A DNA stretch of 20,726 nucleotides from the IMG/VR virus record IMGVR_UViG_3300013880_000023; one strand, written 5' to 3'. The stretch comes from a virus. Shown one piece after another: positions 2,895-17,775 of the stretch. The position numbers and the translations under genes are program-made. How positions within the stretch are numbered: position 1 is the first letter of the stretch; each line of letters starts with the position of its first letter. The notes under the pieces are model-generated. The model searched no databases and was not told the origin of the DNA. It worked only from the letters and a program-made list of their open reading frames with translations.

Positions 2895-3022
2895 TTTTAA
2901 CCTCCATTTTTATTTTTATATTATCATCTCCTCTAAAGTTAGCAATCTCGTCTCGATCTCCTGTAGCTTTCTCTCCAGCCGATCTATTTTTTGTTCTAAA
3001 CTCCAATACTCATACTCCATTT

Positions 3023-3337: not shown

Positions 3338-3355
3338 TTTTTTATACCTCCAATT

Positions 3356-3565: not shown

Positions 3566-3828
3566 ACCTTCGTGTTTCTCTGTTTGATAGAGAGAGCTTC
3601 TGCCCCCTCTATTTCGGCGATGGTTTCATCTTGCAGAACGCTCTGATATCTCCTTAAAAAAGCGATCATTCTGTTTGCTCTTTCTTCTTGATTTTCAGCA
3701 TCTCCGAATATTTCGATCTCATCATCTGAATTAACCCATCCATCTTTTTGCATATCTACAATTACCTCCTCTTTCTCTACTGCAACACCATCGACTTCAC
3801 TTACGGTTTTTATTTCATTTGCTTTCAT
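3562..3828 (-). CDS. Acidic hypothetical protein, 88 aa
   Basis: RBS GGAGGTG. Confidence 0.8.
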   Translation of the reverse strand: MKANEIKTVSEVDGVAVEKEEVIVDMQKDGWVNSDDEIEIFGDAENQEERANRMIAFLRRYQSVLQDETIAEIEGAEALSIKQRNTKV

Positions 3829-3876
3829 TTTACACCTCCATTTTTGTTTTTTTTTCTAAAAATAAATAATAGAGAG

Positions 3877-4029
3877 TTAGATTATTTTTTCCATCTCTCT
3901 ATATGCCATTCTTGCTTTATGGTCTGCTAAATTCTGGTTTTTATTTCTTATCCCCTTAATCCTTTCGTAATCTATTGTGTCTATTATTCCATTTATCATT
4001 TCCCAGCTTTTTATTTCTTTTTCATCCAT
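3877..4029 (-). CDS. Hypothetical protein, 50 aa (MDEKEIKSWEMINGIIDTIDYERIKGIRNKNQNLADHKARMAYREMEKII); first gene of leftward operon
   Basis: Translated by hand; RBS GGAGG; not in ORF track (<60 aa). Confidence 0.75.
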   Translation of the reverse strand: MDEKEIKSWEMINGIIDTIDYERIKGIRNKNQNLADHKARMAYREMEKII

Positions 4030-4256
4030 TTTTATTGCCTCCAATTTACACTACAACCTATGGGTATATATAGTTTTGCTTTATTAAAACTTATGTATAT
4101 ACTCACAAGCATTAATAGAACTTATGGGTATATATATCTATCTATTTAAAAAAATAAAAGATTTTAAAATCTGGTGATGTTATCTTATGGTGATATGGTA
4201 ACGTGTAGATGTTAAAGTGTTATCTTTATATCCATAAATGACTGTATAAGATAACA
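4030..4256. promoter_or_regulatory. Divergent promoter region between early operon and recombinase, with repeated motifs
   Basis: AAC(C/T)TATGGGTATATATA at 4055-4072 and 4119-4136, partial copy 4088-4101; TGTTATCTTAT at 4178-4188 and inverted at 4246-4256. Confidence 0.6.
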
Positions 4257-4817
4257 ATGAGCTGGGATAAAAGATTGGATTTTGATGAATGGGATCTGAG
4301 GTTCAAGAAGGATATGCACGATCTTGCGAAAGAGAAAGAATATAACGAATTGAAGAAGAGACCTGTACCGGCAACAGTTCTTACCCGTCTTCTTTATACT
4401 TCAATTCTCTTGACTCAGATAGAGAACGGTTCAAGGATATCAGAGGCTGTTGAGGCGGTCTTGAGTTTCAAAAATAACAATGAGAGAATACAAAAGATAA
4501 GGGCACGGAAACGTAAAAAACTGAGCAAGGGCAAAGATGTTGATGTCCTGATAAAGATACCATCTGCCGTAAAAAAACAATATTTAGATCTGGATTATCC
4601 ATTTGAGAAAACATTGAACGGTGTAAAGATATTTGCAGTCCGTTATTACAAGATAAACACGCATTCGCTAAGATATTCTTGGATCGCAAAGATGGGTCGT
4701 GAAGGTATACCTACAAACCTGATCTCCAAAGCTATAAGGCATACGAACATCCAGACGATAGAAAACTATACTGCTGAGGATGAAGCCGACACGATAAAGA
4801 TGAATTTCATAAAATAA
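4257..4817 (+). CDS. Tyrosine recombinase/integrase, catalytic domain only (186 aa)
   Basis: Catalytic residues in order: 'GSRISEA' (R), 'RKRKK' (K), 'HSLR' (H-x-x-R), 'IRHTN' (H), 'ENY' (Y). Confidence 0.9.
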   Translation: MSWDKRLDFDEWDLRFKKDMHDLAKEKEYNELKKRPVPATVLTRLLYTSILLTQIENGSRISEAVEAVLSFKNNNERIQKIRARKRKKLSKGKDVDVLIKIPSAVKKQYLDLDYPFEKTLNGVKIFAVRYYKINTHSLRYSWIAKMGREGIPTNLISKAIRHTNIQTIENYTAEDEADTIKMNFIK

Positions 4818-4837
4818 AAAACAGATAAGTATATATA

Positions 4838-4859
4838 ATAATACTAATATTAGTATTAT
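4838..4859. repeat. Perfect 22-bp palindrome ATAATACTAATATTAGTATTAT
   Basis: Base pairing checked position by position; lies 20 bp after the recombinase stop. Confidence 0.9.
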
Positions 4860-4873
4860 ATAGGGAATAAAAT

Positions 4874-4996
4874 ATGGTGTTGCTAAAATGCAAAAAATGC
4901 GGAAAAGAATGGGACTATACTGGAACAAAGTCAGTATATGCCACGTGCCCGGACTGTCGTGCGTTGGTTAAAATAGAAACAAAAAAGGAGGCGTAA
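4874..4996 (+). CDS. Zinc-finger microprotein, 40 aa (MVLLKCKKCGKEWDYTGTKSVYATCPDCRALVKIETKKEA)
   Basis: CxxC...CPxC with the W-x-Y-x-G spacer typical of archaeal virus Zn fingers; translated by hand. Confidence 0.85.
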   Translation: MVLLKCKKCGKEWDYTGTKSVYATCPDCRALVKIETKKEA

Positions 4997-5002
4997 AGCA
5001 AT

Positions 5003-5056
5003 ATGGGTAATATAATGTCAATGTTAGGTTTTATCTTTGCACCACTACAAAAATAG
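5003..5056 (+). CDS. 17-aa hydrophobic peptide MGNIMSMLGFIFAPLQK
   Basis: RBS GGAGG at 4987-4991; similar to the peptide at 5931 (MSM[LV]G...AP[LV]Q). Confidence 0.5.
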   Translation: MGNIMSMLGFIFAPLQK

Positions 5057-5074
5057 ATAAAAGGAGATGAAAAA

Positions 5075-5320
5075 ATGGTGGATGAATCAGATAATAAAAA
5101 AAAGAGGATAGTTACAAAAAATAAAGATGCTGAGAAAATATCTGATAAACCCCTATATGAAGGAGGTAAACCTAAATGGAAAATGACAACTTTAAAAGTG
5201 GAGACGTTGAAGAAAGTAGACCAGATAAAAGTAGACCTGATAAAGATAGGCATAAAGAAAGTAGACCCGATGAAAGTAACGCTGAAAGAATGCCACCGTA
5301 TAGATATGAAAAGATTGTAA
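5075..5320 (+). CDS. Basic protein, 81 aa, possible ribbon-helix-helix-like DNA binder
   Basis: RBS AGGAG; 'MTTLKVETLKKVDQIK' resembles archaeal RHH N-termini (weak). Confidence 0.55.
   Translation: MVDESDNKKKRIVTKNKDAEKISDKPLYEGGKPKWKMTTLKVETLKKVDQIKVDLIKIGIKKVDPMKVTLKECHRIDMKRL
5213..5287 (+). repeat. Five in-register 15-bp units, consensus AAAGTAGACCNGATA (three close, two degenerate)
   Basis: 5213 AAAGTAGACCAGATA; 5228 AAAGTAGACCTGATA; 5243 AAGATAGGCATAAAG; 5258 AAAGTAGACCCGATG; 5273 AAAGTAACGCTGAAA. Confidence 0.8.
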
Positions 5321-5331
5321 GAGGTGAGATA

Positions 5332-5646
5332 ATGGAGAAGAAGAATTTAGAGGATGTATATAGGGAAAGTTTTCAACAGATGATGTTGACAGACAAGTTG
5401 ATACTAGAAGGACAAGACTATATAGCAAATATGAATCCAATAGATCGGATTTTGAAACCCATATCAGAATTGGATCCTAATGAACCATTGAGAAAGAATG
5501 CAATTGATAAACTTCAGTCTATGATGATAGATTGGCTTGATACTTATGCTGATATGTTGAAAGAGGGGCGAAATTTACCGAAAGATCTAATTGGAGAGGC
5601 AGCAGATCTAGCAAAGAGACAAAGAGAGAAACTGAAAGATGAATAG
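5332..5646 (+). CDS. Hypothetical helical protein, 104 aa (alternative in-frame start 5176 gives 156 aa)
   Basis: RBS GAGGTG before ATG 5332; AGGAGGT also precedes ATG 5176. Confidence 0.75.
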   Translation: MEKKNLEDVYRESFQQMMLTDKLILEGQDYIANMNPIDRILKPISELDPNEPLRKNAIDKLQSMMIDWLDTYADMLKEGRNLPKDLIGEAADLAKRQREKLKDE

Positions 5647-5890
5647 AGCTGAACATATAGCTGTAGACAATTTACTGTTAGGATATTCAATACAAGATGT
5701 TCATGAGTATATGGATTTAGCTGTAAAATGGCTTGGTGCTGGTCATCGCTCTATTCGGCATAACATAAACACGGTTGATGCAGCGAAGATATTGTTTGGT
5801 AATGAGGCAGGGTATATTGCTCTACTTCATCTACTTATAGATAATAAAATTGTAGATGTTGAGTTTTTAAAAAAACTAATAAAGAGTTAA
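5639..5890 (+). CDS. His/Asp-motif protein, 83 aa, probable metal-binding (DUF6915-like pattern)
   Basis: 'EH...DVHEYMD...GHRSIRH...FG...ALLHLLID' spacing; overlaps upstream stop. Confidence 0.65.
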   Translation: MNRAEHIAVDNLLLGYSIQDVHEYMDLAVKWLGAGHRSIRHNINTVDAAKILFGNEAGYIALLHLLIDNKIVDVEFLKKLIKS

Positions 5891-5930
5891 ATTATTACAA
5901 ATAAATAATAGAAAAGGAGGTAATTAAAAA

Positions 5931-6014
5931 ATGGATACAATGATGAGCATGGTTGGTCAGATGTGTATGGCACCTGTCCAACTAATACTGAACTTGATGA
6001 AAACAGTATTCTAA
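5931..6014 (+). CDS. 27-aa amphipathic peptide MDTMMSMVGQMCMAPVQLILNLMKTVF
   Basis: Strong RBS AGGAGGT; translated by hand; paralogue at 5003. Confidence 0.75.
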   Translation: MDTMMSMVGQMCMAPVQLILNLMKTVF

Positions 6015-6307
6015 ATTGATTGTGTATGATCAAAACATTTATATAGCCAATCGGTTAAGTTAATATTGCGTGATTATAATCATGCCGGATAGAGCCTCTC
6101 CAAAAGTATATTTTACCCGCTATTTTTTTATTTTTCTATTTTCATATTTTTTATATCTTGTATTGGTTTTAATAGAATCATAGAGGCATCAAAAACGATC
6201 GATAATGATGGCTCGTGTATGTTTTATCACGGTTTATTTTAGATGATGTATATTTACGTTTTTTAATATGGATTTAATAGAAAAGATTAAAAAAAAATAA
6301 AAAGTTT

Positions 6308-6595
6308 TTAAATTCTAATTGCTTGTACCGTGCTCATGCCTGTCGATCCACCAGCAGCAGATCCGCACAACGCCAATATCGGGCTACACACCGTAACAAT
6401 CGTATCAGTCATGCAACCAACCACCGCTCCTATTCCTCCTCCGATAAATGCTGGTATTATTGTTGGTAAACAACAAAAACACAAGTTTAGTGGTCCACAA
6501 CATATACCGAGCAGTCCCAATGGAGTTCCTGCTAATCCACAACCTATTGTTGCAAGCGCATCATCGTTTTTAAACAATTCTCTAATATGTCTCAT
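6308..6595 (-). CDS. Cys/Gly-rich hydrophobic protein, 95 aa, with MRHIRELFKNDDA leader
   Basis: RBS AGGAGTG; multiple Cys including CC pairs; leader nearly identical to that of 11052-11207. Confidence 0.85.
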   Translation of the reverse strand: MRHIRELFKNDDALATIGCGLAGTPLGLLGICCGPLNLCFCCLPTIIPAFIGGGIGAVVGCMTDTIVTVCSPILALCGSAAGGSTGMSTVQAIRI

Positions 6596-6639
6596 TTTAT
6601 TATCACTCCTTATTTTATCTTATTAATATTTAATACTAT

Positions 6640-6972
6640 TTATTTTTTCTTATGGAGATCAAAGAAATACTTTGCATCTTTCTCAGCCTCTCTTTTTGTC
6701 TCTCGATCAGTCGTAACGTTTGAAAGAGCCTGTAACGCTCTGGCAGTTGCAAGAGCATCTCCGCCATGAGCCCGTAATGCGTTCCTTCTTCTTTCGGCAA
6801 CAGGCATATCTTTAGACCAGTTCATCGTAGTTGTTGGTTTATACCATTTTTTACTTTTAGGCGTCCGTCCCGGTCTCCCTCGATCTTCTACTTTATATGT
6901 AGCAGGGGGCACATACGTCCCATCTTTTCTATGATACCCTTTTCTGTGAACGGTTAGTTTTTTTCGTGCCAT
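6640..6972 (-). CDS. Highly basic protein, 110 aa, candidate genome-condensing/virion core protein
   Basis: K/R-rich; 'KGYHRKDGTYV' motif; located in structural region. Confidence 0.8.
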   Translation of the reverse strand: MARKKLTVHRKGYHRKDGTYVPPATYKVEDRGRPGRTPKSKKWYKPTTTMNWSKDMPVAERRRNALRAHGGDALATARALQALSNVTTDRETKREAEKDAKYFFDLHKKK

Positions 6973-6981
6973 CTTAAATCA
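6929..6981. repeat. 53-bp perfect direct repeat, copy 1 (start of the 110-aa gene)
   Basis: CTATGATACCCTTTTCTGTGAACGGTTAGTTTTTTTCGTGCCATCTTAAATCA identical at 7557-7609. Confidence 0.95.
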
Positions 6982-7545
6982 TACCCTTTTTTTTTGATCT
7001 TTATCGCTTCTATTTATTCTCCTCTCATAATATATACGCCCACTTTTTGATGACCGCCTCCCCGGATGTTTTGCTACTAATTTCTCATCATGTGATCTGC
7101 CACGAGCAGTCTGGTTTCCTATTTGTCGATTGGTTTGTTTCGTTCTCTTTTGTGGTCTTTTAGATTTTTTAGTTCTTATTTTCGTCAATGCACTTTTTGG
7201 TACCCAAAAATCCATACCATTGTTATTTGTCAGCAATAAAGCCTTATCGGTCTTTCGTTTTATTTTTAAGTCTCCGTCGCTCTCTCCTATTAGTATTTGT
7301 AGATCAAGCTTGTTTTTTTTAGCGAACCAATCCGCTATTTGATATTTTTCCCCCTGTATAGATATCAGGCTCTTTTTCCATTTTTCTACATTATCTATAA
7401 ATCCTTTAGTTTTTAATCCGTTTTCATGTTGATATATAAATTCGCCTTTTCCTAAATCAACCGATATCAGTTTTGCACCCGGGTATTTTGCCCTGACATA
7501 TTCTTCTATATCACGCTTACTTATTTTTTTAGATACATCTGCCAT
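6979..7545 (-). CDS. Basic protein, 188 aa, with an R/K-rich C-terminal tail
   Basis: 'KTDKALLL...FWVPKSAL' motif; C-terminal 'HPGRRSSKSGRIYYERRINRSD'; flanked by 53-bp direct repeats. Confidence 0.85.
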   Translation of the reverse strand: MADVSKKISKRDIEEYVRAKYPGAKLISVDLGKGEFIYQHENGLKTKGFIDNVEKWKKSLISIQGEKYQIADWFAKKNKLDLQILIGESDGDLKIKRKTDKALLLTNNNGMDFWVPKSALTKIRTKKSKRPQKRTKQTNRQIGNQTARGRSHDEKLVAKHPGRRSSKSGRIYYERRINRSDKDQKKRV

Positions 7546-7600
7546 GTCGACCAGTCCTATGATACCCTTTTCTGTGAACGGTTAGTTTTTTTCGTGCCAT
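7529..7600 (-). pseudogene. Truncated duplicate of the 110-aa gene start (MARKKLTVHRKGYHRTGRHGRCI*)
   Basis: First 15 codons match 6640-6972 at protein level, then diverge and stop after 23 codons. Confidence 0.7.
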
Positions 7601-7609
7601 CTTAAATCA
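7557..7609. repeat. 53-bp perfect direct repeat, copy 2
   Basis: Identical to 6929-6981 (offset 628). Confidence 0.95.
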
Positions 7610-7618
7610 GATCCTTCT

Positions 7619-7738
7619 TCACCTCTTTTTTCTCCCACGGGACATATCTGCCTCATACACCGACAGCGGATCGCCTTTTACAAAATAGAGCTTGCCCTTC
7701 TGTCGTTTTATTCCAAGATCTTTAATTTTTTTAGCCAT
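7619..7738 (-). CDS. 39-aa basic microprotein resembling chromatin protein Cc1 (MAKKIKDLGIKRQKGKLYFVKGDPLSVYEADMSRGRKKR)
   Basis: RBS AGGAG; 'LGIKR.KG.LYFV....V....M.RG.K' recalls the Cc1 DNA-binding motif; translated by hand. Confidence 0.65.
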   Translation of the reverse strand: MAKKIKDLGIKRQKGKLYFVKGDPLSVYEADMSRGRKKR

Positions 7739-7757
7739 GTTTATAATCTCCTTGTTT

Positions 7758-8759
7758 TTATTTTATTACTTTTTTAGATCTTTCTCTTGCCGTCTTATGA
7801 ATAGATCTCGCTTTGTTGTTTTTAGGCTTTGTTAAATTATTTTTTATTGTAGAGCCAAGTTTTACTTTTTTGCCATTTCTCCACTCATAGACAATAATAT
7901 TAGAACCATACTCATCTGTAAACTCTTTTAGAACGACTGCGTTTGAGTCTTTTACTCCTCTTTTATACCGTCTATGTACCTCAAATCTTTCTTTGTTTGG
8001 TAATATGATTTGGAAATACCTGTCTAAGTTCTCCGCAGGTGAAAAATGAGCACGCCTAATTCTTGAATCGTTATATTTTTTCTCCACATCAGCAACAAAT
8101 AGTTTACCCTTTCTGTTCTTTCTTAAATCACCGGTCAGTAGAATTCTATCATATTTTATGTTGCTCTCTGGATCTCCCTCAACATAGCTATAATATCCGG
8201 TGGTTTTGTTTTTTATGTCTGACACTCGACCGACTGTCTCAAACTCTGTCATCTTCTCTATCGTGTTTCTATCCCTCGTCATTGATCCGCTACCGTGTTG
8301 CCGTGCATGGACTAACTCATGCGTATATACCCCCTCAGAGTCGATAAAATCTGGAGATATAGATATATAATTTAGTTTTGTAAAAAGATTATATGCATTT
8401 TGCCCCACAGCATGGTGAGATTTTAATGTTCCCTCTATATACACTCGCCCGATTTGTCTTCTCTCATCTGCAGTAAAGTCCTCCATTAAAACCTTTTTTG
8501 CCATCTGGTGAATTTTAGATATGGTTGCTTTTGTGCCACCCGTATATTTATATGATGTTTTTTTAATCCTCATTACATCATTTCTTGGATGGTCTATCCC
8601 GTTGAGATCGTATCTTTTATATCCACCCATTGCCCAATCGTTATATGTATCAGGAGAGTATGGCTTTATTTTTGCCATTTTGTTATAATCTATTGCCTTA
8701 GATCTATTGGATACGGCATCTGTTACCCAATCCTTCTTGCTGATTGATTTTTTGCTCAT
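7758..8759 (-). CDS. Basic protein, 333 aa, with a zincin-like metallopeptidase motif
   Basis: 'VYTHELVHARQH' (HExxH at 8307-8321) followed by 'IEKMTEFE' (possible third ligand); basic N- and C-termini. Confidence 0.75.
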   Translation of the reverse strand: MSKKSISKKDWVTDAVSNRSKAIDYNKMAKIKPYSPDTYNDWAMGGYKRYDLNGIDHPRNDVMRIKKTSYKYTGGTKATISKIHQMAKKVLMEDFTADERRQIGRVYIEGTLKSHHAVGQNAYNLFTKLNYISISPDFIDSEGVYTHELVHARQHGSGSMTRDRNTIEKMTEFETVGRVSDIKNKTTGYYSYVEGDPESNIKYDRILLTGDLRKNRKGKLFVADVEKKYNDSRIRRAHFSPAENLDRYFQIILPNKERFEVHRRYKRGVKDSNAVVLKEFTDEYGSNIIVYEWRNGKKVKLGSTIKNNLTKPKNNKARSIHKTARERSKKVIK

Positions 8760-8760
8760 C

Positions 8761-9048
8761 TTATCGTCTCACCTCTCTTTTAGATCTCTTTCTCGGTTTC
8801 CTATTCTTTAACGCTTTCAGGTTTTTTATCTCGGCAGCGTGGATCTTAGCCAATGCGGCAAAATGATCGCCTTGTTCTCTCGCATATACCGCCAGCCTTC
8901 GCAACCTGTTCTTATCTGCTTTAGTCTCCGCCTGTTTCATCAACTCCATCCGATCTTTATACTTCTTCTTGTACTCGTCAACAAGACCTAACGCCTCTTT
9001 ATGCTCCCGCTGCTCCGTTTTTATCATGCTGTCATAAGATTCAGTCAT
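8761..9048 (-). CDS. Basic coiled-coil protein, 95 aa
   Basis: Helical, charged sequence; abuts downstream gene. Confidence 0.8.
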   Translation of the reverse strand: MTESYDSMIKTEQREHKEALGLVDEYKKKYKDRMELMKQAETKADKNRLRRLAVYAREQGDHFAALAKIHAAEIKNLKALKNRKPRKRSKREVRR

Positions 9049-9093
9049 GTTTTATCACACATCTGATTGGTTTTATTAATTTGTTATTTTGTT

Positions 9094-9987
9094 TTAAACA
9101 GGTGCTATTGGTACTGCAAGAACCGCCAGCCACGGGACTGCAATAGCCAGACCAATACCATATTTTAAGAGCGTCCCTATATTACCTGCTTCGGGCAATA
9201 GTGAGAATATCTCGATAAACACGGCGATAGACCAGATGTACGCTATTATCTGACCAATCCTGAACGGATCTTTTAGACCGAACAGGTCAGAGATGCCAAA
9301 ATCGTAAGTCATGCACCATTTTGCAGTTAATAGTGGGTTAAACACTCCGCCAGCATATTTGAGTATTTGAGTACCCATTGAGGCAGCCATACCATACAAC
9401 GCTCTTGTTGTACGCTCTGTTATTGATTGCTCTTGCCATCCTGCTGACTGGGTTCTGCTCGTTAAGATGTTTTGCATTTGCTCGCTGTTAATAGACTCGT
9501 TGTAATATTTCTCCAATACTGATGAGTTCAATGCAGGCTGAAAGACGATAAAATCTGATCCATAAACGTTAGTCGTTCTGGTCGGTCCGATTATCTCATT
9601 TACCGGCACAGAGAAATAAACGGGATATGCTGCAGCGTACATGTTCTCATGCTGAAACATAACTCTACCATCCCTGATTGGTGCTATCATCTCTCCACTC
9701 TGAACCTTTGCCCATGACTCAGCTACGGTAGTTCCACTGCCAGCATGCACATGTGATAACGTGAATGGTTCAAACTTGCCAACGTTTTCTGGCAATAAAC
9801 TTTTGGATGGAGTGCCCTCAGTGGTGACAGTGATCTGAAGATCTTTAGCAACATTGGATGACGATATTTGTTCTGCCTCTGCAAAGATCTGATCACTATA
9901 TCCTGCAGGCACTCCAGGGGCAAACATGGCTACGATAAGAAAATAAACAGCACCGAATATGATCAGGCTGGTTAGATACCTGCTCAT
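9094..9987 (-). CDS. Membrane-anchored virion (tail/adsorption-like) protein, 297 aa
   Basis: N-terminal signal/TM, soluble middle, hydrophobic C-terminal helices; adjacent to capsid genes. Confidence 0.75.
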   Translation of the reverse strand: MSRYLTSLIIFGAVYFLIVAMFAPGVPAGYSDQIFAEAEQISSSNVAKDLQITVTTEGTPSKSLLPENVGKFEPFTLSHVHAGSGTTVAESWAKVQSGEMIAPIRDGRVMFQHENMYAAAYPVYFSVPVNEIIGPTRTTNVYGSDFIVFQPALNSSVLEKYYNESINSEQMQNILTSRTQSAGWQEQSITERTTRALYGMAASMGTQILKYAGGVFNPLLTAKWCMTYDFGISDLFGLKDPFRIGQIIAYIWSIAVFIEIFSLLPEAGNIGTLLKYGIGLAIAVPWLAVLAVPIAPV

Positions 9988-11051: not shown

Positions 11052-11207
11052 TTAGAACCCTCCACAAAAAGCTGATAATATTGCACCGACTAACGTTCCA
11101 AGTTCTGCCCATAATGCCTGCCAGATGGGACAGAAATATAAAATCGTTCCGTCTATCATCATACCAATGGCATCATCGTTTTTAAACAATTCTTTTATAT
11201 GTCTCAT
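11052..11207 (-). CDS. 51-aa peptide with leader: MRHIKELFKNDDAIGMMIDGTILYFCPIWQALWAELGTLVGAILSAFCGGF
   Basis: RBS AGGAGGTG; 38/40 nt identical to the start of 6308-6595. Confidence 0.85.
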   Translation of the reverse strand: MRHIKELFKNDDAIGMMIDGTILYFCPIWQALWAELGTLVGAILSAFCGGF

Positions 11208-11224: not shown

Positions 11225-11506
11225 TTAATCAGAATCATCCTTGTCATTGCCGAACCAACCCAGAATAGCAAAGATTAGCCCTATCATAAACATGACTATC
11301 ACGATTATTGGTATATATCCCCAGATCATTCCGAGCAGAGTAGGATTCATCTCCGTACCAGCCAGACTCTCAGGAAGACCACCAAACATCTGGAACGCTA
11401 TCGGGAACAAGATGCCTGCAAGTATGATACCGATGCCTATGGCCACTACTGCCTCAACCATCTCCTTGATCGTGAACGCCGCATCTTCATTTTTTATCAG
11501 TTTCAT
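11225..11506 (-). CDS. Spindle-shaped-virus-type capsid protein paralogue, 93 aa, with a class III-like leader (MKLIKNEDA)
   Basis: Two hydrophobic helices 'IGIGIILAGILFPIAF' and 'MIWGYIPIIVIVMFMIGLIF' mirror the fusellovirus VP1/VP3 pattern (IGIVLLPVI...LLNLVPLFYIL); RBS AGGAG. Confidence 0.75.
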   Translation of the reverse strand: MKLIKNEDAAFTIKEMVEAVVAIGIGIILAGILFPIAFQMFGGLPESLAGTEMNPTLLGMIWGYIPIIVIVMFMIGLIFAILGWFGNDKDDSD

Positions 11507-11602: not shown

Positions 11603-11836
11603 TTATCTTCCACTGTCTTTTATAGTAGACATAGCGTAATATATAATGCCGATTGCAATCGCCAATATGACCATCATTGGGATCAGTGTCCATAGATTCT
11701 CAATACCAGCCATTGCACCAGTAAACTCTATGTCAGCTGACGAGAACATATTCAATGCCACTGGTATCAACGCAGCAACGATTATTAAACCGATTGCAAT
11801 GTTTATTATAGTCTCTATATCGAATGGTTTAGCCAT
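11603..11836 (-). CDS. Major capsid protein candidate of spindle-shaped-virus type, 77 aa
   Basis: 'IAIGLIIVAALIPVAL...TG...LWTLIPMMVILAIAIG' matches the fusellovirus/His1 two-helix MCP pattern; own AT-rich promoter and RBS GAGGTG. Confidence 0.8.
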   Translation of the reverse strand: MAKPFDIETIINIAIGLIIVAALIPVALNMFSSADIEFTGAMAGIENLWTLIPMMVILAIAIGIIYYAMSTIKDSGR

Positions 11837-11923: not shown

Positions 11924-12040
11924 TCAGAGCATATTGCATAAGGACTGAATAACTCCGATTACAATGTTGCCAAAACCTCTAACGAACTCTTGGAACACCG
12001 CAGTAGATGGTATTGGACAGCATAATTGAATTATTCCCAT
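11924..12040 (-). CDS. 38-aa peptide MGIIQLCCPIPSTAVFQEFVRGFGNIVIGVIQSLCNML
   Basis: RBS GGAGGTG; TGATG coupling with upstream gene. Confidence 0.75.
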   Translation of the reverse strand: MGIIQLCCPIPSTAVFQEFVRGFGNIVIGVIQSLCNML

Positions 12041-12150
12041 CACTTACCACCTCCCAGACTAACTCCAGCCAACGACTTTGTAATTACCCGATACAGTTCA
12101 TTTTGCAATACAATGATATATTGCAAAATCGTATTAATCAAAGCACCCAT
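12040..12150 (-). CDS. 36-aa amphipathic peptide MGALINTILQYIIVLQNELYRVITKSLAGVSLGGGK
   Basis: RBS GAGGTG; ends in GK. Confidence 0.75.
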   Translation of the reverse strand: MGALINTILQYIIVLQNELYRVITKSLAGVSLGGGK

Positions 12151-12259
12151 TTTAATTGCACCTCTTCTTATTTATAATTTATTTGTTATATATATTTATT
12201 GGTTAATAATATATTTTGGTTAATATTATCATATTATCTTATGCATCTGATTTACCATC

Positions 12260-12538
12260 TTATTTGCCTGTTGCTCCCTGCATTACTGCCGGAACGGCTG
12301 CACTTGCACCACCAGATGACCCGCCGCCAAATATTCCACCAATCAACGATACCAAAGATCCGCACATTGTTGAACATGATGACAAAATACCCGAGCACAT
12401 TGATGACGTAGACGGTAATATATTTGCACACGTATTACCGATCGCCAATGCTGTTGTATTTGATATCAAAGACGTGCATATCTGTGGAAGACCACAACAA
12501 ACTGCACTACAACAAAACTGAGTTATTATTCCTGACAT
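12260..12538 (-). CDS. Cys/Ser/Gly-rich hydrophobic protein, 92 aa, ending in GK
   Basis: RBS AGGAGGT; many Cys, almost no charged residues. Confidence 0.85.
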   Translation of the reverse strand: MSGIITQFCCSAVCCGLPQICTSLISNTTALAIGNTCANILPSTSSMCSGILSSCSTMCGSLVSLIGGIFGGGSSGGASAAVPAVMQGATGK

Positions 12539-12814: not shown

Positions 12815-14284
12815 TTATTGTTTTTTAAGAAGAAAATATATACCGCCACTCCAACACAATACGATCAAAACAGGAATGATCAACCAGTATATATTAAAAC
12901 CGCCCTCTTTCTTCTCTTCTTCTATTGGTGCTGTTACTACTGGAATTCCTGTCTCTGTTTGCTCTTCAGGAATTGCCACCGATACATGATATGACCCGGA
13001 TGCATAAGCTGTATTCTCTATATCCGATACCTCTACCCTGTAATCCCCTTCCCGTGCATTATCAAGCATTAGGACAAACCTTCCAGACTGAATATCAGTG
13101 AAGTACTGAGTGCCATCAACGGTTACAATTAATCGTTTTTGTCCGTCTGGTATGTTTGTAGATCCCATTATCATCAGTTTACCATCAGCCGATAATGTGA
13201 CATCGCTTATCGTGATGGTAGGCAGATCAACCGAGACTTTTACCCTGTTCACTATGTCATAGTTCGATGATGCCGTCTGGTTGTTCATGAACCTGCTTAT
13301 ACCGTCTGGATACGATAACAGTTTGCCAGTTTCTTCTATGGAGCCGTAATGATAGAACCCATCCGCTCCCGGATGTACTATTAGCACATCGTACATTCCA
13401 CGCTGTAACCTGTCTATCGGAGAAATCATGCCGTTTCGATCATAGAACGAAAAGTTCAACGGTTTTACTGTAGCGTCAAATGTGCCATCCTCTGACATAA
13501 TGTTTAGCTGAGTGTACCCCGCAAGACCATTACCCACAAGCCAAACTTCGACTTTTTTAGTCCCGTCTGCTGTACCACTGATGTTTATATCTCCATGAAC
13601 TGTAGTCCTTGCCGATGCATTGAGAGATAGACGAGGCTCTGCTAAAAACACTGGAGCGACTGCCTGTATGTTCTTATCGTCTCCGTAATAGATTAATACG
13701 GAGTAGTTTCCGGGCTGTAGATTTTTAGTATTGATGTTTATATCAAACTTGCCGTCTGACACGGTTATGTTAGTTAAACCATATTCTCTTCCTCTGTCGT
13801 CTCTTATAACTGCTGTCAAATTATCCTTTAAATTAGTCTCTCCTGTAATGTTAACCATATCGCCATAGGTTGATACCCTGTCGATCTCCACCAAGTTTAT
13901 GAACGCATCCTCTGGCACCGGAGGTATAACCCTAAATATTGCATACTTACCAGAACTATACGCAATATAATACCCTTCTTTAAGATCCTTCGTATCAATA
14001 GACGTGCCCGATTTATCAACATCATGCCGTGCCTCTTTGTATATCTGCTCAACCGAGTTATAAACACCGTTCACCGTTGCTTGCGTATCGAATATAAGCA
14101 CTGTACCCCGTTCTATCGATCCTATTTCTTTATTCTCCAGCGTAACCTGTCTTGTTATTTTTGGTTGTTCTTTCTGCCCCGGCGTAAACATCTGTCCTTC
14201 TGCTATCTCTGACATGATAGGTATTGATACTGATAGACAGAATATTGCCAACACTATTATTCCGAATATTGTTTTACTATTCAT
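12815..14284 (-). CDS. S-layer-like secreted glycoprotein with repeated beta-rich domains and C-terminal membrane anchor, 489 aa
   Basis: Signal peptide; repeated '(I)xGxTN(L/I)' and 'GxYxVxI' motifs, 'YDVLIVHPGADG'; at least 8 N-x-S/T sequons; 'GGF'+TM+'KKQ' tail resembling PGF-CTERM. Confidence 0.75.
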   Translation of the reverse strand: MNSKTIFGIIVLAIFCLSVSIPIMSEIAEGQMFTPGQKEQPKITRQVTLENKEIGSIERGTVLIFDTQATVNGVYNSVEQIYKEARHDVDKSGTSIDTKDLKEGYYIAYSSGKYAIFRVIPPVPEDAFINLVEIDRVSTYGDMVNITGETNLKDNLTAVIRDDRGREYGLTNITVSDGKFDININTKNLQPGNYSVLIYYGDDKNIQAVAPVFLAEPRLSLNASARTTVHGDINISGTADGTKKVEVWLVGNGLAGYTQLNIMSEDGTFDATVKPLNFSFYDRNGMISPIDRLQRGMYDVLIVHPGADGFYHYGSIEETGKLLSYPDGISRFMNNQTASSNYDIVNRVKVSVDLPTITISDVTLSADGKLMIMGSTNIPDGQKRLIVTVDGTQYFTDIQSGRFVLMLDNAREGDYRVEVSDIENTAYASGSYHVSVAIPEEQTETGIPVVTAPIEEEKKEGGFNIYWLIIPVLIVLCWSGGIYFLLKKQ

Positions 14285-14323
14285 GTTTAAACTCTTCTCT
14301 TTTATTTATTTTTATTATAAATA

Positions 14324-14401
14324 TCATCTAACACAACATAGAGGTAATGTTTCATATATCATATCAATTACAAATAAAACCGCTTGAATACATATTTGCA
14401 T
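14324..14401 (-). CDS. 25-aa peptide MQICIQAVLFVIDMIYETLPLCCVR
   Basis: RBS GGTGA; paralogue of the next two genes. Confidence 0.75.
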   Translation of the reverse strand: MQICIQAVLFVIDMIYETLPLCCVR

Positions 14402-14414
14402 TTATATCACCCTA

Positions 14415-14489
14415 TCATCTATAAAATAATGGAAGTGACATCCATATAAATTTAACAACACATGCAAGTGTTTTTATAACGAATCCCAT
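14415..14489 (-). CDS. 24-aa peptide MGFVIKTLACVVKFIWMSLPLFYR
   Basis: RBS AGGTGA. Confidence 0.75.
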   Translation of the reverse strand: MGFVIKTLACVVKFIWMSLPLFYR

Positions 14490-14495
14490 CTTTTA

Positions 14496-14648
14496 TCACC
14501 TACACAACATTGGAATTGATGCCCAGATCCAATTCACCGCTTCTAACATCATTAAATAGGCATACCCTGCAATAGTACCCATAATTAAATTTAACCCATT
14601 AAATCCACAATTACATATATTGCATAGTAATGATATAGCTATCTTCAT
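14496..14648 (-). CDS. 50-aa peptide MKIAISLLCNICNCGFNGLNLIMGTIAGYAYLMMLEAVNWIWASIPMLCR
   Basis: Start 1 bp after upstream stop; C-terminus paralogous to the two downstream peptides. Confidence 0.75.
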   Translation of the reverse strand: MKIAISLLCNICNCGFNGLNLIMGTIAGYAYLMMLEAVNWIWASIPMLCR

Positions 14649-14649
14649 G

Positions 14650-14799
14650 CTATCCCCAGCCTAAAACTGCATTTATGATGTTAAATATAATATTAAGACA
14701 ACCTCCGCCACCACCAACAACCAGACTAACCCCCGAACTCACCCAGCTAAATATTACGTTCCATGCTGAACATACGATATGAAGCAACCCTCCAACCAT
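14650..14799 (-). CDS. 49-aa uncharged Gly-rich peptide MVGGLLHIVCSAWNVIFSWVSSGVSLVVGGGGGCLNIIFNIINAVLGWG
   Basis: RBS-like AGGATGGT; tight packing with the next gene. Confidence 0.75.
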   Translation of the reverse strand: MVGGLLHIVCSAWNVIFSWVSSGVSLVVGGGGGCLNIIFNIINAVLGWG

Positions 14800-14844
14800 T
14801 TTTTACCATCCTTTTATTTTCATTATTTTTTATTCATTTTATAT

Positions 14845-15021
14845 CTATTTAACTAACGCACCCGGTAATATGCTTACAACACCTCTAAACACACGATTGA
14901 TGATTGTTTGGATGTATGAACATGTGGAAACGATCTGAAACGCATAGTTAACTACATCGTAGAGATAGCAACATAAAGGCAAATTGATCTGACAACATAT
15001 ACCATAGCATATTGATTGCAT
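14845..15021 (-). CDS. 58-aa Cys-rich peptide (MQSICYGICCQINLPLCC...SILPGALVK)
   Basis: Start moved to ATG 15021 behind GAGGT. Confidence 0.75.
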   Translation of the reverse strand: MQSICYGICCQINLPLCCYLYDVVNYAFQIVSTCSYIQTIINRVFRGVVSILPGALVK

Positions 15022-15037
15022 ATTATACCTCATCATC

Positions 15038-15325
15038 TCATTTACCTAATGCAGCTATCAGATCACCTATAGCGGTCTCTGCAATCTCAATATAATTCAC
15101 AATACACGGGACAGATTGTAACCCAGCCATAATCATTGATATGAATTTGAGCCAGAGATCAAACAAGGACTGACCTCCACATATAACGAGATCACAACCT
15201 ATCTTACCTGCCGAACATACCCAAGAGTTTATGCACGGTACTAGAGTTAAACCTCCCGTTATTCCTGTCAATCCGAGACGAATTAAAGATGCTACAATCC
15301 CAAAAACTATTATACAGCATTCCAT
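15038..15325 (-). CDS. 95-aa Cys-rich hydrophobic protein ending AALGK
   Basis: N-terminus MECCI similar to MQTCI/MQTCL; C-terminus shared with 15803-15997. Confidence 0.8.
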   Translation of the reverse strand: MECCIIVFGIVASLIRLGLTGITGGLTLVPCINSWVCSAGKIGCDLVICGGQSLFDLWLKFISMIMAGLQSVPCIVNYIEIAETAIGDLIAALGK

Positions 15326-15345
15326 ATTTTATCTTTTTTCATTTT

Positions 15346-15786
15346 TTATGCAAATATCCACGATAATATTGTCTGCGAGACCTTACTGAATAGAGCTACG
15401 CCGTTAGAGTTACAAGCGAGTAATAAAATAAAGTATACTATTACTTGTATGATCATATATATAACTCCCGGAATTATCATTATTACTGTTAAAAATGAAG
15501 GTAATAATCCAGGTACGACGGCATTATTTAGAAAGGATAGACACATATTAGGCATTATATAGAGGAAAGGAAATGTTACACACAAAGGAAATAATATCAA
15601 GCTAAACAAATTATGAAGAATTAATCCAATACCTGTACAAATAAAAATGGGCCAATTCCAAATCATACCAATAATATAAAATCCTGCAATACCAGTAATT
15701 ATAGCAAATATAAGCATCAGAATACCCCAGACTACAAACTCCAATATCTCCAGAATTAAACATATTAAGTCTGTTATCGGTTCCAT
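15346..15786 (-). CDS. Extremely hydrophobic multi-pass membrane protein, 146 aa
   Basis: RBS GAGGT; nearly continuous hydrophobic helices with scattered Cys. Confidence 0.8.
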   Translation of the reverse strand: MEPITDLICLILEILEFVVWGILMLIFAIITGIAGFYIIGMIWNWPIFICTGIGLILHNLFSLILFPLCVTFPFLYIMPNMCLSFLNNAVVPGLLPSFLTVIMIIPGVIYMIIQVIVYFILLLACNSNGVALFSKVSQTILSWIFA

Positions 15787-15802
15787 ATCTTATTTTACCT
15801 CT

Positions 15803-15997
15803 TTATTTACCTAGTGCTGCTGGTATATTAATAAGTGCTCTGATTGCTTCGTTTATCATACCAATTATGTTCGTGCATCCAACTCCTACCGTTGTCATTA
15901 GGCATTGGTAACACACACATAAGTCAGGAATACCCTGACCAATCAATACCTTAATCCAACTTGCACATAGCCCAATTATTGCAATACACGTCTGCAT
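15803..15997 (-). CDS. 64-aa Cys-rich peptide ending AALGK
   Basis: MQTCIAIIGLCASW parallels MQTCLSVVGVCASW of the upstream gene. Confidence 0.8.
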   Translation of the reverse strand: MQTCIAIIGLCASWIKVLIGQGIPDLCVCYQCLMTTVGVGCTNIIGMINEAIRALINIPAALGK

Positions 15998-16047
15998 CTT
16001 TTTCTTATTTTATTTTTATATGATTATATGAGGTGCGATGATCATGG

Positions 16048-16251
16048 TTACTTCGGTGAAAATAGATCAGTTAATCTTGCCATAACAGAGTCAATATATG
16101 GTATGATTGGTGCACAAATTCCTCCAAAACAACCGCCACCGATTCCTACACAACCACTACATAATGACTGACAAACGGTAATAATGCTCTCCCCGAACAT
16201 AGCTTTAAACCAGCTTGCACATACTCCTACTACAGATAAACACGTTTGCAT
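16048..16251 (-). CDS. 67-aa Cys/Gly-rich peptide
   Basis: RBS GAGGT; paralogous N-terminus to 15803 and paralogous C-terminus to 16313. Confidence 0.8.
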   Translation of the reverse strand: MQTCLSVVGVCASWFKAMFGESIITVCQSLCSGCVGIGGGCFGGICAPIIPYIDSVMARLTDLFSPK

Positions 16252-16312
16252 TTTTATTTTTACCTCTTTTTTTATTTTTTATTTGTTTTACCTCTATTCT
16301 GACTTTTAACGA

Positions 16313-16477
16313 TCACTTTGCAGAGAATATAAGATCGTTGATCCTTGCAAAAATCGGATCGATATATGTAACGCATGATATCCCTGTCGATATTATAGAG
16401 CCGATAATGTTGCATATTTTTGGCATTAATGAACAAATACCCATACAGTTTTCTATCCACGTAACGATACAATCCAT
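16313..16477 (-). CDS. 54-aa Cys-rich peptide MDCIVTWIENCMGICSLMPKICNIIGSIISTGISCVTYIDPIFARINDLIFSAK
   Basis: Preferred to the track's 16272-16472 frame because the C-terminus YIDPIFARINDLIFSAK matches YIDSVMARLTDLFSPK of 16048-16251. Confidence 0.75.
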   Translation of the reverse strand: MDCIVTWIENCMGICSLMPKICNIIGSIISTGISCVTYIDPIFARINDLIFSAK

Positions 16478-16504
16478 CTTATTTTCCTGTATTTTCCTGT
16501 GTTT

Positions 16505-16675
16505 TTATTTATTTACAAACTGGGACATATTATCAATCGCAAAGGATATACATGATTCAATCCAAGCAACCCATTCTCCCCGCATGCACCAGAGACAAAT
16601 ATACGTGATCGTCTCTTGGATCGGTATCTGTATCAAATCGCATGCATAGTTCCAGAATCCTTGGTATATCATCAT
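16505..16675 (-). CDS. 56-aa peptide MMIYQGFWNYACDLIQIPIQETITYICLWCMRGEWVAWIESCISFAIDNMSQFVNK
   Basis: No clear RBS, but N-terminus parallels 16692-16826 and 'VAWIESC' parallels 'VTWIENC'. Confidence 0.65.
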   Translation of the reverse strand: MMIYQGFWNYACDLIQIPIQETITYICLWCMRGEWVAWIESCISFAIDNMSQFVNK

Positions 16676-16691
16676 ACAGCATCAATAAAAA

Positions 16692-16826
16692 TCATTGGTT
16701 AAAAAGACCAGAGAATACCTCTGTAATAACGTTCTTAAGAGTACTAACTATCGTCATTATCATGCTTTGAATCGGATATGCTATGGCATTACAAACAGCG
16801 TTTATTATCAATTCATAGATAATCAT
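16692..16826 (-). CDS. 44-aa peptide MIIYELIINAVCNAIAYPIQSMIMTIVSTLKNVITEVFSGLFNQ
   Basis: RBS GAGGT. Confidence 0.75.
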   Translation of the reverse strand: MIIYELIINAVCNAIAYPIQSMIMTIVSTLKNVITEVFSGLFNQ

Positions 16827-16847
16827 GTTTTACCTCTTTAGTCCTTC

Positions 16848-16991
16848 TTATTTGCCAAACTCTGCTGCCATGATGTTTACAGATGCACTGATCCCGTCTA
16901 CAAATCCCTGAATAAAGTTTGGAATCATGTACAATATCAATGTAAGAGAATACGGAGATGGGCAAAACAGATCGATAGCAAGACCTACCAT
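16848..16991 (-). CDS. 47-aa peptide MVGLAIDLFCPSPYSLTLILYMIPNFIQGFVDGISASVNIMAAEFGK
   Basis: GGTGAGGGG upstream; ends in GK; CP motif shared with 11924 and 11052. Confidence 0.7.
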   Translation of the reverse strand: MVGLAIDLFCPSPYSLTLILYMIPNFIQGFVDGISASVNIMAAEFGK

Positions 16992-16998
16992 AAGATCA

Positions 16999-17112
16999 TC
17001 ATCCCCTCACCAAAGACTGCAATAACTCACCGATTATCGTACCTATTGACATGCCAAGCGGATATGCAAGCTGGAATGCATACTCAATGATCGGCGTTAT
17101 TATTATCGACAT
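16999..17112 (-). CDS. 37-aa peptide MSIIITPIIEYAFQLAYPLGMSIGTIIGELLQSLVRG
   Basis: GAGTGA upstream; first gene of the array. Confidence 0.7.
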   Translation of the reverse strand: MSIIITPIIEYAFQLAYPLGMSIGTIIGELLQSLVRG

Positions 17113-17159
17113 GGTCACTCTTTTTTATCTTTTTTATTTTGTTGTTTTTTTCTTTTTTT
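17098..17159. repeat. 62-bp direct repeat, copy 1 (61/62 identical to 17469-17530)
   Basis: TATTATTATCGACAT[G/T]GTCACTCTTTTTTATCTTTTTTATTTTGTTGTTTTTTTCTTTTTTT; offset 371. Confidence 0.95.
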
Positions 17160-17231: not shown

Positions 17232-17462
17232 TCAAAGAGCGAGCTCTACTATTATAAATGCTATAAATGCTAAAAGCATCAAAATGATCATGCCAATCCA
17301 CTGATTCTCAGACAATAGTGATGCTGTATAGTTAAGTTGTCTATATAGCATAATCCTGCTTATATCCTCATTATTGGTAAATCCTGCTTCTCGGCATATC
17401 GCAACTTCTTCTTTCAGTTGCTTAATTCTTCTTTCTTTGCGGCGTTCAGATAGTTTACTCAT
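17232..17462 (-). CDS. 76-aa protein with basic N-terminus and C-terminal TM helix
   Basis: 'WIGMIILMLLAFIAFIIVELAL'; lies between the 62-bp repeats. Confidence 0.75.
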   Translation of the reverse strand: MSKLSERRKERRIKQLKEEVAICREAGFTNNEDISRIMLYRQLNYTASLLSENQWIGMIILMLLAFIAFIIVELAL

Positions 17463-17468: not shown

Positions 17469-17530
17469 TATTATTATCGACATTGTCACTCTTTTTTATC
17501 TTTTTTATTTTGTTGTTTTTTTCTTTTTTT
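17469..17530. repeat. 62-bp direct repeat, copy 2; encodes a stub MSIII*
   Basis: Single mismatch at 17484 vs 17113. Confidence 0.95.
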
Positions 17531-17681
17531 CTCTTTTCTTTTTTTGCCGTCTTAATTTTATGCTTTCCTGGATCGTTTTGATCGCCATATATACAGAGAA
17601 TAACCGTGAATTTGTCGGAGGTTCATCATCTATACCTCTGGCCGCTTTACCTATCTGTTCAAGATCTCTTAATATAGACGT
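17505..17681 (-). pseudogene. 58-codon basic ORF with ACG where ATG is expected (pseudogene or non-canonical start)
   Basis: GGAGGTATAAAC-ACG TCT ATA...; open to TAA at 17505; only an internal ATG at codon 32. Confidence 0.45.
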
Positions 17682-17775
17682 GTTTATACCTCCAAGATAT
17701 TTATATATTATAAATGTTATCTTATAAATATATAAAGTTAATCATAAATTGGATAAAAGGAGGGATAAGGTCAAA

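Follow-up and report, generated by a model that had tools for sequence, protein, structure and literature searches.

The window analysed here, a stretch of 20,726 nucleotides (nt) filed in IMG/VR as the virus record IMGVR_UViG_3300013880_000023, carries on its minus strand, between positions 14324 and 17118, a row of 14 consecutive, co-oriented open reading frames (ORFs) encoding proteins of 24 to 146 amino acids (aa). These ORFs are genuine protein-coding genes, kept under purifying selection within their lineage, and they encode small, leaderless, almost uncharged, helix-prone hydrophobic proteins. The array is stable within a lineage and replaced as a module between lineages, its first four genes and its flanks remaining in place. 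Tentatively, with a confidence that falls just short of an even chance, we take its products to be membrane-embedded accessory proteins of the virion or of its morphogenesis.

Fourteen small genes under purifying selection

The ORFs, numbered here from 17118 downwards, occupy 90% of the span of the array, with gaps of 1 to 61 nt between them. The best same-strand tiling by ORFs covers 91% of the region, against 56% on the opposite strand; 500 randomisations with a first-order Markov model gave a mean of 52% (standard deviation 7%, maximum 72.5%), which places the array 5.5 standard deviations above random sequence. A preliminary description of this DNA had already listed the 14 packed, co-oriented ORFs; all are present at the coordinates it reported, on the minus strand. 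It had also remarked that a 60-aa filter would miss most of them, as it does for nine of the 14, and that a ribosome-binding motif precedes most. A Shine-Dalgarno-like match of at least four bases is indeed found upstream of 9/14 starts, against 33% of all ATGs on the same strand, a modest enrichment. A scan for bacterial-type promoters and terminators returned sites no commoner than in shuffled sequence, using a model that is not applicable to archaea.

Coding status was assessed in nine related contigs (L001 to L009), which share 82-97% nucleotide identity with the window. Every ORF is intact in each relative that covers it, the differences in length being in frame (+6, -12 and -21 nt), and in the 82%-identical relative L004 all 14 keep start, stop and frame. 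Changes accumulate in excess at the third codon position (35, 17 and 89 at the first, second and third positions against L001; 93, 57 and 165 against L004). The ratio of non-synonymous to synonymous change (dN/dS) is 0.21-0.32 when pooled over the array and mostly 0.1-0.4 for individual ORFs. In each ORF with informative changes, those of 24 and 25 aa included, synonymous change per site exceeds non-synonymous change. Lack of frame conservation among relatives was what the preliminary description had named as fatal to its proposal; frames, starts and stops are kept, with mostly synonymous substitutions. Its picture of a diversifying arsenal does not hold within the lineage, where selection is purifying (dN/dS 0.1-0.4). 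Divergence is mosaic, some ORFs being identical next to neighbours with about 0.5 synonymous changes per synonymous site (pS), a pattern indicative of recombination between strains that circulate together. What looked like internal deletions in L009 were stretches of N marking scaffold gaps. Exact-protein look-ups placed several of the peptides in other assemblies as well, and the gene callers applied to the relatives skipped many of these small ORFs or called antisense ORFs.

It could be objected that many of the smallest ORFs are untranslated, and that a few real genes (146, 95, 67 and 64 aa) stand among frames left open by a T-rich composition. Each ORF of less than 30 aa rests on only six to eight substitutions, some starts have no Shine-Dalgarno match, and contigs from RNA libraries, described below, are no proof of transcription. 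Yet this explanation has to accommodate the start, stop and frame kept by all 14 ORFs in L004, a synonymous excess per site wherever changes are informative, and a tiling far above that of random sequence, while the best ribosome-binding sites belong to the two smallest ORFs (AGGTGAT and GGTGAT). We regard it as barely credible.

Composition, cysteines and conserved ends

Cysteine makes up 6.3% of the array products and 0.5% of the large proteins of the virus, a 12-fold enrichment. Charged residues (D, E, K and R) amount to 7.8% against 27.5% in the large proteins, with 0 to 10 per peptide; the earlier statement that charge is nearly absent was right in its direction and somewhat overstated. 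Net charge lies between -3 and +3, and is 0 or negative in 10 of the 14. The grand average of hydropathy (GRAVY) ranges from 0.4 to 1.7, and the ORFs begin directly with their hydrophobic body: no N-terminal signal, charged N-region or larger precursor is visible in the peptide sequences.

The behaviour of the cysteines among relatives is informative. They vary at 14 of 52 positions, a rate like that of isoleucine (34 of 134) and leucine (23 of 85); they are replaced by I, V, L, F, W, Y, G or T, and nine other positions gain a cysteine. Constraint is strongest on lysine (0 of 17 variable), arginine (1 of 12) and proline (2 of 29), together with glutamine and asparagine. Cysteines drifting like isoleucine and leucine among constrained polar residues are the signature of helices buried in a hydrophobic environment. 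In this array cysteine behaves as a small apolar residue like any other, and constraint falls on the few polar or basic residues, including the C-terminal lysine or arginine. The pattern is not that of a disulfide, thioether or metal-binding framework: the cysteines are no better conserved than isoleucine or leucine and exchange with hydrophobic residues. In toxins built on a cysteine framework, whether halocin C8-like or disulfide-rich, the cysteines are the most conserved positions, which they are not here.

Ten of the 14 ORFs end in K or R, residues which represent 3.5% of the total (binomial p about 3e-12). The last codons of such ORFs clearly form the ribosome-binding site of the next gene only at a few tight junctions, for example: TGT AGG TGA closes ORF 12 and doubles as the ribosome-binding site of ORF 13, and GGT AAA TGA G ATG links ORF 9 to ORF 10. 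The ORFs that end in K or R with a spacer of at least 16 nt have their own upstream sequence, and the basic end is therefore mostly a feature of the protein itself.

Paralogous subfamilies had been proposed, and they are there. The ORFs at 16313, 16048, 15803 and 15038 form one family, whose alignment displays conserved N- and C-termini around a variable middle, with an N-terminal module M-[QED]-x-C...G..AS[WL].[KR] and a C-terminal module C..YI[DE]....[DN]L...K. The 95-aa member (15038) has a large insert in the variable middle. The pairs 16692/16505 and 14496/14415 also share their ends, and a looser C-terminal helix ending in lysine is found in most array members as well as in the small ORFs at 12260, 12040 and 10949.

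Outside their own lineage these proteins are orphans in every collection searched. Scans of the peptides against Pfam and NCBIfam matched no family, and with E-values up to 1 no bacteriocin or precursor model appeared; a PHROGs search yielded noise only, and a search of the ESM Atlas for distant homologues yielded no usable match. A profile of the four-member family, run exhaustively against 1.84 billion representative proteins, found the family itself only, and the 146-aa product of ORF 8 matched just three clusters, at 62-93% identity, among 5.8 billion proteins.

A cassette exchanged between strains

More distant members of the lineage were reached via the capsid protein and the 489-aa protein encoded next to the array (L013, L017 and L020/L021). 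The window is collinear with the 24-kb contig L017, at 72-99% nucleotide identity, except for positions 14322 to 16531 of the minus strand. This cassette of ten ORFs is replaced in L017 by 6.3 kb (3676-9959) devoid of nucleotide similarity to it in blastn. L017 keeps the first four peptides (79-100% amino-acid identity) and a partial match to the fifth. In the slot itself it carries other small hydrophobic ORFs, an ORF of 784 codons, a 314-aa cysteine-rich protein with a signal peptide, a 251-aa methionine-rich protein and three ORFs rich in glycine and cysteine. L013 and L020 also hold the 314-aa and 251-aa genes, with the same slot filled by other hydrophobic ORFs. The small ORFs that these two contigs carry upstream of the 490-aa gene share 42-52% amino-acid identity, with gene gain and loss, as compared with 73-78% for the flanking genes. 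No resemblance between the small ORFs of the L013, L017 and L020 slots and the peptides of the window was detected by BLAST or by hidden Markov models. The search for syntenic, variable arrays suggested in the preliminary description was thus rewarded: from one lineage to another, everything in the slot upstream of the 489-aa gene is exchanged. The array takes up 13% of the genome in the window and about 29% in L017. Exchange of the slot among strains is the pattern expected of a strain-specific module facing the host envelope.

Two inhabitants of the L017 slot merit a description of their own. The 784-codon ORF (4482-6836, plus strand) has a GRAVY of 2.31, with 81 cysteines, 70 glycines and three charged residues, and is without internal repeats. 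It is a single sequence, with A at the second codon position in 2% of its codons, in a place where the gene caller of the assembly put antisense ORFs. The 251-aa methionine-rich protein (L017 8120-8875; L013 758-1519; L020 921-1676) matches the STI1-like XPC-binding domain PF09280 above cut-off (E 2.5e-8) and has one hydrophobic segment. Its gene always adjoins that of the 314-aa cysteine-rich signal-peptide protein and has no copy in the window. The virus could use it as a holdase of its own for hydrophobic proteins.

The virus and its structural genes

The window encodes a 77-aa protein (11603-11836, minus strand) that matches the Pfam family His1_capsid (PF25665) with E 2.5e-9 and 37.4 bits, against a cut-off of 27 bits, and displays two hydrophobic stretches, residues 5-34 and 45-72, which are predicted helices. 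It is the predicted major capsid protein, and this match supports the attribution to an archaeal virus made earlier. Next to it lies a 93-aa paralogue (11225-11506, minus strand; shuffle z 13.5 against the 77-aa protein), with a weak match to His1_capsid below cut-off (E 0.007). These predicted proteins assign the window to a virus of archaea, uncultivated and presumably spindle-shaped, whose capsid protein is of the His1 type and which is known here from its metagenomic contig alone. Its recognisable genes for replication and integration are a D5-like primase-helicase, a short tyrosine recombinase and a VapE-like protein. INPHARED contains no close relative by DNA, by the 489-aa protein or by the capsid proteins, and four queries of IMG/VR returned none either. 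Two scans of GTDB species genomes, one with patterns from the capsid proteins and one with patterns from a conserved 92-aa protein, found no integrated copy and no host.

From about 17700 down to about 6300 all genes lie on the minus strand with short gaps. The order is a small basic ORF, a 76-aa gene, the 14 peptides, the 489-aa protein and a zinc-ribbon protein, followed by three small hydrophobic ORFs, the two capsid genes, two 297-aa membrane proteins and a protein with an HExxH motif. The gene next downstream of the array (12815-14284, minus strand) encodes the 489-aa protein, which has 64-88% identity in all relatives and is much better conserved than the adjoining cassette. In its AlphaFold model (predicted local distance difference test, pLDDT, 65) an N-terminal helix resembling a signal is followed by a chain of beta-sandwich domains, and the C-terminus forms a membrane anchor; the best Foldseek matches are the surface-layer (S-layer) protein of Haloferax volcanii (7ptp) and adhesins with immunoglobulin-like repeats. 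This model suggests that it is probably a surface or receptor-binding protein of the virion. Homology to VP27/ORF27 of His1 was examined and set aside: blastp gave E 4e-4 but hhalign a probability of 2.6%, and the two are treated as analogous only.

Possible roles of the array proteins

If the array serves the virion, its proteins would be made together with the structural proteins and would enter the host membrane with no need of a signal peptide. They would then become accessory parts of the hydrophobic shell of the virion, or of the machinery of assembly, entry or exit, their C-terminal basic residue staying on the cytoplasmic side, which becomes the virion interior. The His1-type capsid protein, the co-directional block shared with the putative surface protein, the membrane-protein composition and the cassette behaviour would all support such a role. 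Minor envelope proteins had been among the functions first suggested for the peptides, and of these they fit the evidence better than toxins do, while remaining a conjecture.

A number of points weigh against a virion role. Fourteen or more different accessory virion proteins are unusually many for a 20-kb virus, and the wholesale swap of the cassette fits non-structural accessory genes of the prophage 'moron' type equally well. The peptides have no recognisable homology to any known family, and a descent from the capsid protein was rejected (hhalign probability 0.2%). The array looks like the head of a structural block or operon, a judgement based on orientation and spacing only. Hydrophobic stretches long enough to span a membrane occur only in some members (146, 95, 64, 49, 25 and 24 aa); those at 16999, 16848, 16505 and 14845 have no 15-residue stretch with a mean hydropathy of at least 1.6, and may therefore be peripheral. 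The AlphaFold model of the 64-aa member (ORF 7) contains three helices at low confidence (pLDDT 56). The amphipathic helices of the preliminary description find their sole support in this model: helices are predicted, at that same low confidence.

The same proteins could instead remain in the host membrane without ever joining the virion, there to block superinfection, to alter the envelope for a viroporin-like exit or to counter a host defence associated with the membrane, from an accessory locus of the 'moron' type. The replacement of the cassette between otherwise collinear strains agrees with this, as do the gain and loss of genes in L013 and L020, with a divergence above that of their flanks, and the hydrophobic, leaderless nature of the proteins. 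To be set against it are the position of the array within the co-directional block of capsid and surface-protein genes, not in an early or accessory region, the very large investment (13% of the genome, about 29% in L017), and a purifying selection within the lineage which bears no sign of an arms race. Nor are the proteins holin-like: their C-termini are hydrophobic with a single K or R, not a charged tail, and no lysin gene was recognised in the genome. We hold this alternative to be unlikely, though far from negligible; it is hard to separate from a role in the virion. An arsenal of toxins or of precursors of modified peptides (archaeocin-like, bacteriocin-like, or of the kind of ribosomally synthesized and post-translationally modified peptides, RiPPs), released against competitors or uninfected cells, was the other function first proposed, and the evidence disfavours it. 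The peptides are short, tandem, paralogous and cysteine-rich, and some microhalocins (C8, S8) are likewise hydrophobic and rich in cysteine. Conserved ends around variable middles recall the recognition sequences that flank a core peptide; the shared end modules of the four paralogues are equally typical of duplicated membrane proteins. But leaderless bacteriocins are cationic, whereas the net charge is here mostly 0 or negative; there is no signal or leader, no match to Pfam or NCBIfam models of bacteriocins and precursors, and dN/dS stays at 0.1-0.4. The cysteines are unconserved and exchanged with I, V, L and F, and with a GRAVY of about 1 a free, diffusible peptide is unlikely. It had been stated that no modifying enzyme or exporter is recognisable in the 20.7-kb genome, and this stands for its large ORFs: none has a YcaO, radical SAM, LanM or similar domain, Pfam finds no transporter among them, and the 333-aa HExxH protein has no Pfam match. 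No immunity gene was recognised, such genes not being recognisable by sequence. A toxin arsenal thus appears highly improbable.

Comparison with known systems

The nearest point of comparison is His1 (Halspiviridae). Its capsid protein belongs to the same Pfam family as that of the window, and small hydrophobic ORFs adjoin its capsid gene (ORF21) and a protein of about 500 aa with a signal and a C-terminal anchor. ORF22, which follows the capsid gene, encodes 32 aa with a GRAVY of 1.45 and three cysteines; ORF24 and ORF25 are small and annotated with three transmembrane regions each, and ORF26/27 have a signal and an anchor. Differences are as clear: there is no sequence homology among the small ORFs, and His1 has about three such genes, not paralogous, against 14 here (about 20 genome-wide) with a 12-fold enrichment in cysteine and cassette swapping. 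The replication genes also differ, a D5-like helicase here and a protein-primed DNA polymerase B in His1. It had been remarked that no spindle-shaped virus is known to have an array like this one. The small hydrophobic ORFs beside the capsid gene of His1, far fewer and not paralogous, qualify that remark. Our search of the literature on spindle-shaped archaeal viruses with cysteine-rich hydrophobic proteins found no description of such an array.

Filamentous phages (Inoviridae) provide a parallel in another domain of life. Their pVII, pIX and pVI are tiny (about 32-33 aa) or small, leaderless, hydrophobic minor coat proteins, encoded beside the genes of the major coat and of the receptor-binding protein; they enter the membrane before the particle is assembled, and pVII ends in a basic residue. 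The array proteins are similarly tiny, leaderless and hydrophobic, with a basic C-terminus, and are encoded with the predicted coat and adsorption genes, which is a resemblance only. There is no homology, the type of virus and the domain of the host differ, and the phages have three such proteins, neither borne on a variable cassette nor cysteine-rich. By analogy, not homology, the array proteins may resemble pVII and pIX in function.

Two other systems come to mind. The 'moron' and superinfection-exclusion proteins of prophages are, like the present ones, small membrane proteins which vary between strains and are exchanged as cassettes between collinear genomes. Their genes are usually single or paired, with their own promoter and terminator, whereas here we have a long, translationally packed row inside a structural block. 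Leaderless and class II bacteriocins, phenol-soluble modulins and microhalocins are short, helical and sometimes encoded in tandem, and microhalocins are hydrophobic and cysteine-rich. The array products differ from all of them in being not cationic or amphipathic enough, in matching no family, in their unconserved cysteines, and in their setting, where no gene for export, immunity or processing was recognised.

Individual members of the array

The coordinates that follow are on the minus strand. ORF 1 (16999-17112) encodes 37 aa, or 39 aa if translation begins at the GTG at 17118, and ends in LVRG. It is intact in L001, L005, L009 and L017, with dN/dS 0.12-0.17 and an excess of third-position changes. 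ORF 2 (16848-16991; 47 aa, ending in AEFGK) is intact in L001, L002, L005, L009 and L017 (96% amino-acid identity), with dN/dS 0.16-0.20. ORF 3 (16692-16826; 44 aa), preceded by GAGGT, has an N-terminus like that of ORF 4 and is intact in six relatives (dN/dS 0-0.11). ORF 4 (16505-16675; 56 aa, ending in FVNK), also intact in six relatives (dN/dS 0.11-0.32), is the last gene shared with L017 before the swapped cassette, at 79% amino-acid identity.

The family of four paralogues begins with ORF 5 (16313-16477; 54 aa), whose C-terminus reads YIDPIFARINDLIFSAK. It is intact in seven relatives with dN/dS 0.12-0.15, and in an eighth, L002, the aligned ORF is one base short and the stop codon is not read. 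ORF 6 (16048-16251; 67 aa; MQTC...CASW...YIDSVMARLTDLFSPK) has a shuffle z of 13 against ORF 7 and is intact in the relatives (dN/dS 0.13-0.43). ORF 7 itself (15803-15997; 64 aa; MQTC...ALGK) is intact in seven relatives with few changes. The fourth paralogue is ORF 9 (15038-15325; 95 aa; MECC...IAALGK), the one with the central insert; its dN/dS is 0.19-0.37, and an in-frame deletion of 21 nt produces an 88-aa variant in L004 and L011. ORF 8 (15346-15786), placed between ORFs 7 and 9, encodes 146 aa with several long hydrophobic stretches and a GRAVY of 1.68, and its product is probably a polytopic membrane protein. It is the fastest-evolving member, with 0.23 non-synonymous changes per non-synonymous site (pN), dN/dS 0.38-0.40 against L002 and L004, and one in-frame indel of 6 nt.

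ORF 10 (14845-15036; 63 aa, ending in GALVK) is identical in four relatives. Its version in L004 starts with MQTIC (dN/dS 0.22), and as this most divergent relative starts there, the true start is probably the sixth codon (Met6 at 15021, MQSIC..., giving 58 aa). ORF 11 (14650-14799; 49 aa) has no charged residue and a glycine-rich centre; L004 carries an in-frame deletion of 12 nt, and dN/dS is 0.05-0.10. The last three ORFs are each intact in L001 and L004. ORF 12 (14496-14648; 50 aa), with dN/dS 0.25-0.72, ends in IPMLCR, a C-terminus like that of ORF 13. ORF 13 (14415-14489; 24 aa, ending in LPLFYR, preceded by AGGTGAT) differs from its L004 counterpart by five synonymous and three non-synonymous changes, and ORF 14 (14324-14401; 25 aa, ending in LPLCCVR, preceded by GGTGAT) by four and two.

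Neighbouring genes

Two direct repeats of 62 bp, 98% identical (17098-17159 and 17469-17530), flank the 76-aa gene (17232-17462). Each copy takes in the stop codon that ends the gene before it, a ribosome-binding region and the opening codons MSIII, and the arrangement is also seen in L001, L009 and L017. At the head of the block, a small and very basic ORF (17533-17700, minus strand) ends in KKKKTTK. GGAGGT is found just upstream of its frame with no standard start codon at the usual distance; the counterpart in L017 encodes 57 aa and begins with ATG. TATA-like boxes are present at about 17700-17740.

The preliminary description had counted nine further ORFs of the same kind elsewhere in the genome. 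Those at 6308, 10949, 11052, 11924, 12040 and 12260 exist, and so do those at 5931 and 19851, on the plus strand; no ORF begins or ends at 5003. The three small hydrophobic ORFs located between the genes of the surface protein and of the capsid proteins (11924-12538, minus strand; 92, 36 and 39 aa), those at 11924, 12040 and 12260, have 58-78% amino-acid identity in L010, L013, L017 and L020. Unlike the array, they are kept across all lineages, and those of 92 and 36 aa keep a C-terminal GK. The ORF at 6308 is intact in L001 with mostly synonymous changes; for those at 10949 and 11052, L001 has identical and hence uninformative copies, and neither turned up in L010.

Two of these ORFs (6308-6595 and 11052-11207, minus strand) encode cysteine-containing hydrophobic peptides starting with MRHI(R/K)ELFKNDDA. 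They share a leader-like motif, KN(D/E)DA, with the 93-aa capsid paralogue, whose N-terminal extension (MKLIKNEDAA) is similar; this hints at a common leader, processing site or maturation route for the three proteins. The 333-aa protein with the HExxH motif (HELVH; 7758-8759, minus strand) has a 314-aa homologue in L010 and L017, and may be a metallopeptidase of the structural block.

Habitat and RNA libraries

The stretch is present in public runs of 11 studies, labelled as oil-field, crude-oil, soil and wastewater metagenomes. Sample types of this sort suggest an archaeal host that lives without oxygen and may be a methanogen. Contigs of spindle-shaped viruses found in anaerobic digesters have been assigned to methanogens (PMC9796341), and a new family has been described for a Methanosarcina spindle-shaped virus with two copies of the capsid gene (PMC12451623).

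In the oil-field runs examined, contig depth, a poor measure, reaches the thousands, and many strain variants are present. Four runs were considered: three RNA libraries, which come from two studies, and a DNA run on the sample that gave one of these libraries. All four yield contigs across nearly the whole genome, including the array. Contigs do not tell a transcript from viral DNA carried over into the library, and their depths do not allow one gene to be compared with another. In the paired sample, the ratio of RNA to DNA depth is very uneven along the genome, which hints at real transcripts weakly at best. In one oil-field sample, contig depth in the DNA run is about 5 over the early-gene region (positions 727-4061) and thousands elsewhere, and the RNA library has 35-200 over that region. 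By this crude measure, the pattern suggests either strains whose early module differs or genuine transcription of early genes.

Implications for spindle-shaped viruses

Small hydrophobic accessory proteins in viral structural modules are already known. What is new here is the scale (14 in a row, about 20 genome-wide), the extreme composition, the paralogy through shared ends and the wholesale exchange of cassettes, which in the relatives extends to the nearly chargeless 784-aa protein. A bolder proposal, which we consider quite unlikely, is that this exchangeable, ultra-hydrophobic and cysteine-laden repertoire, from 24 aa to 784 aa and 13-29% of the genome, accompanied in some strains by an STI1-like candidate holdase, builds or remodels a hydrophobic, largely proteinaceous shell, or a strain-specific device for entry or fusion. 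If this were true, the repertoire would be a type of virion component undescribed for any virus, and cassette exchange would set the specificity for the host envelope.

Independently of function, the array is a concrete warning about blindness to small ORFs in the annotation of viruses: this lineage gives 13-29% of its genome to tiny orphan hydrophobic proteins, most of which escape standard gene callers. In the literature consulted, spindle-shaped viruses from anoxic habitats rich in methanogens are so far represented by metagenomic contigs, and the accessory proteins of spindle virions are poorly understood. Should the array proteins be components of the virion or of its entry machinery, they would offer a handle on the assembly of spindle-shaped virions and on the way these viruses recognise their hosts.

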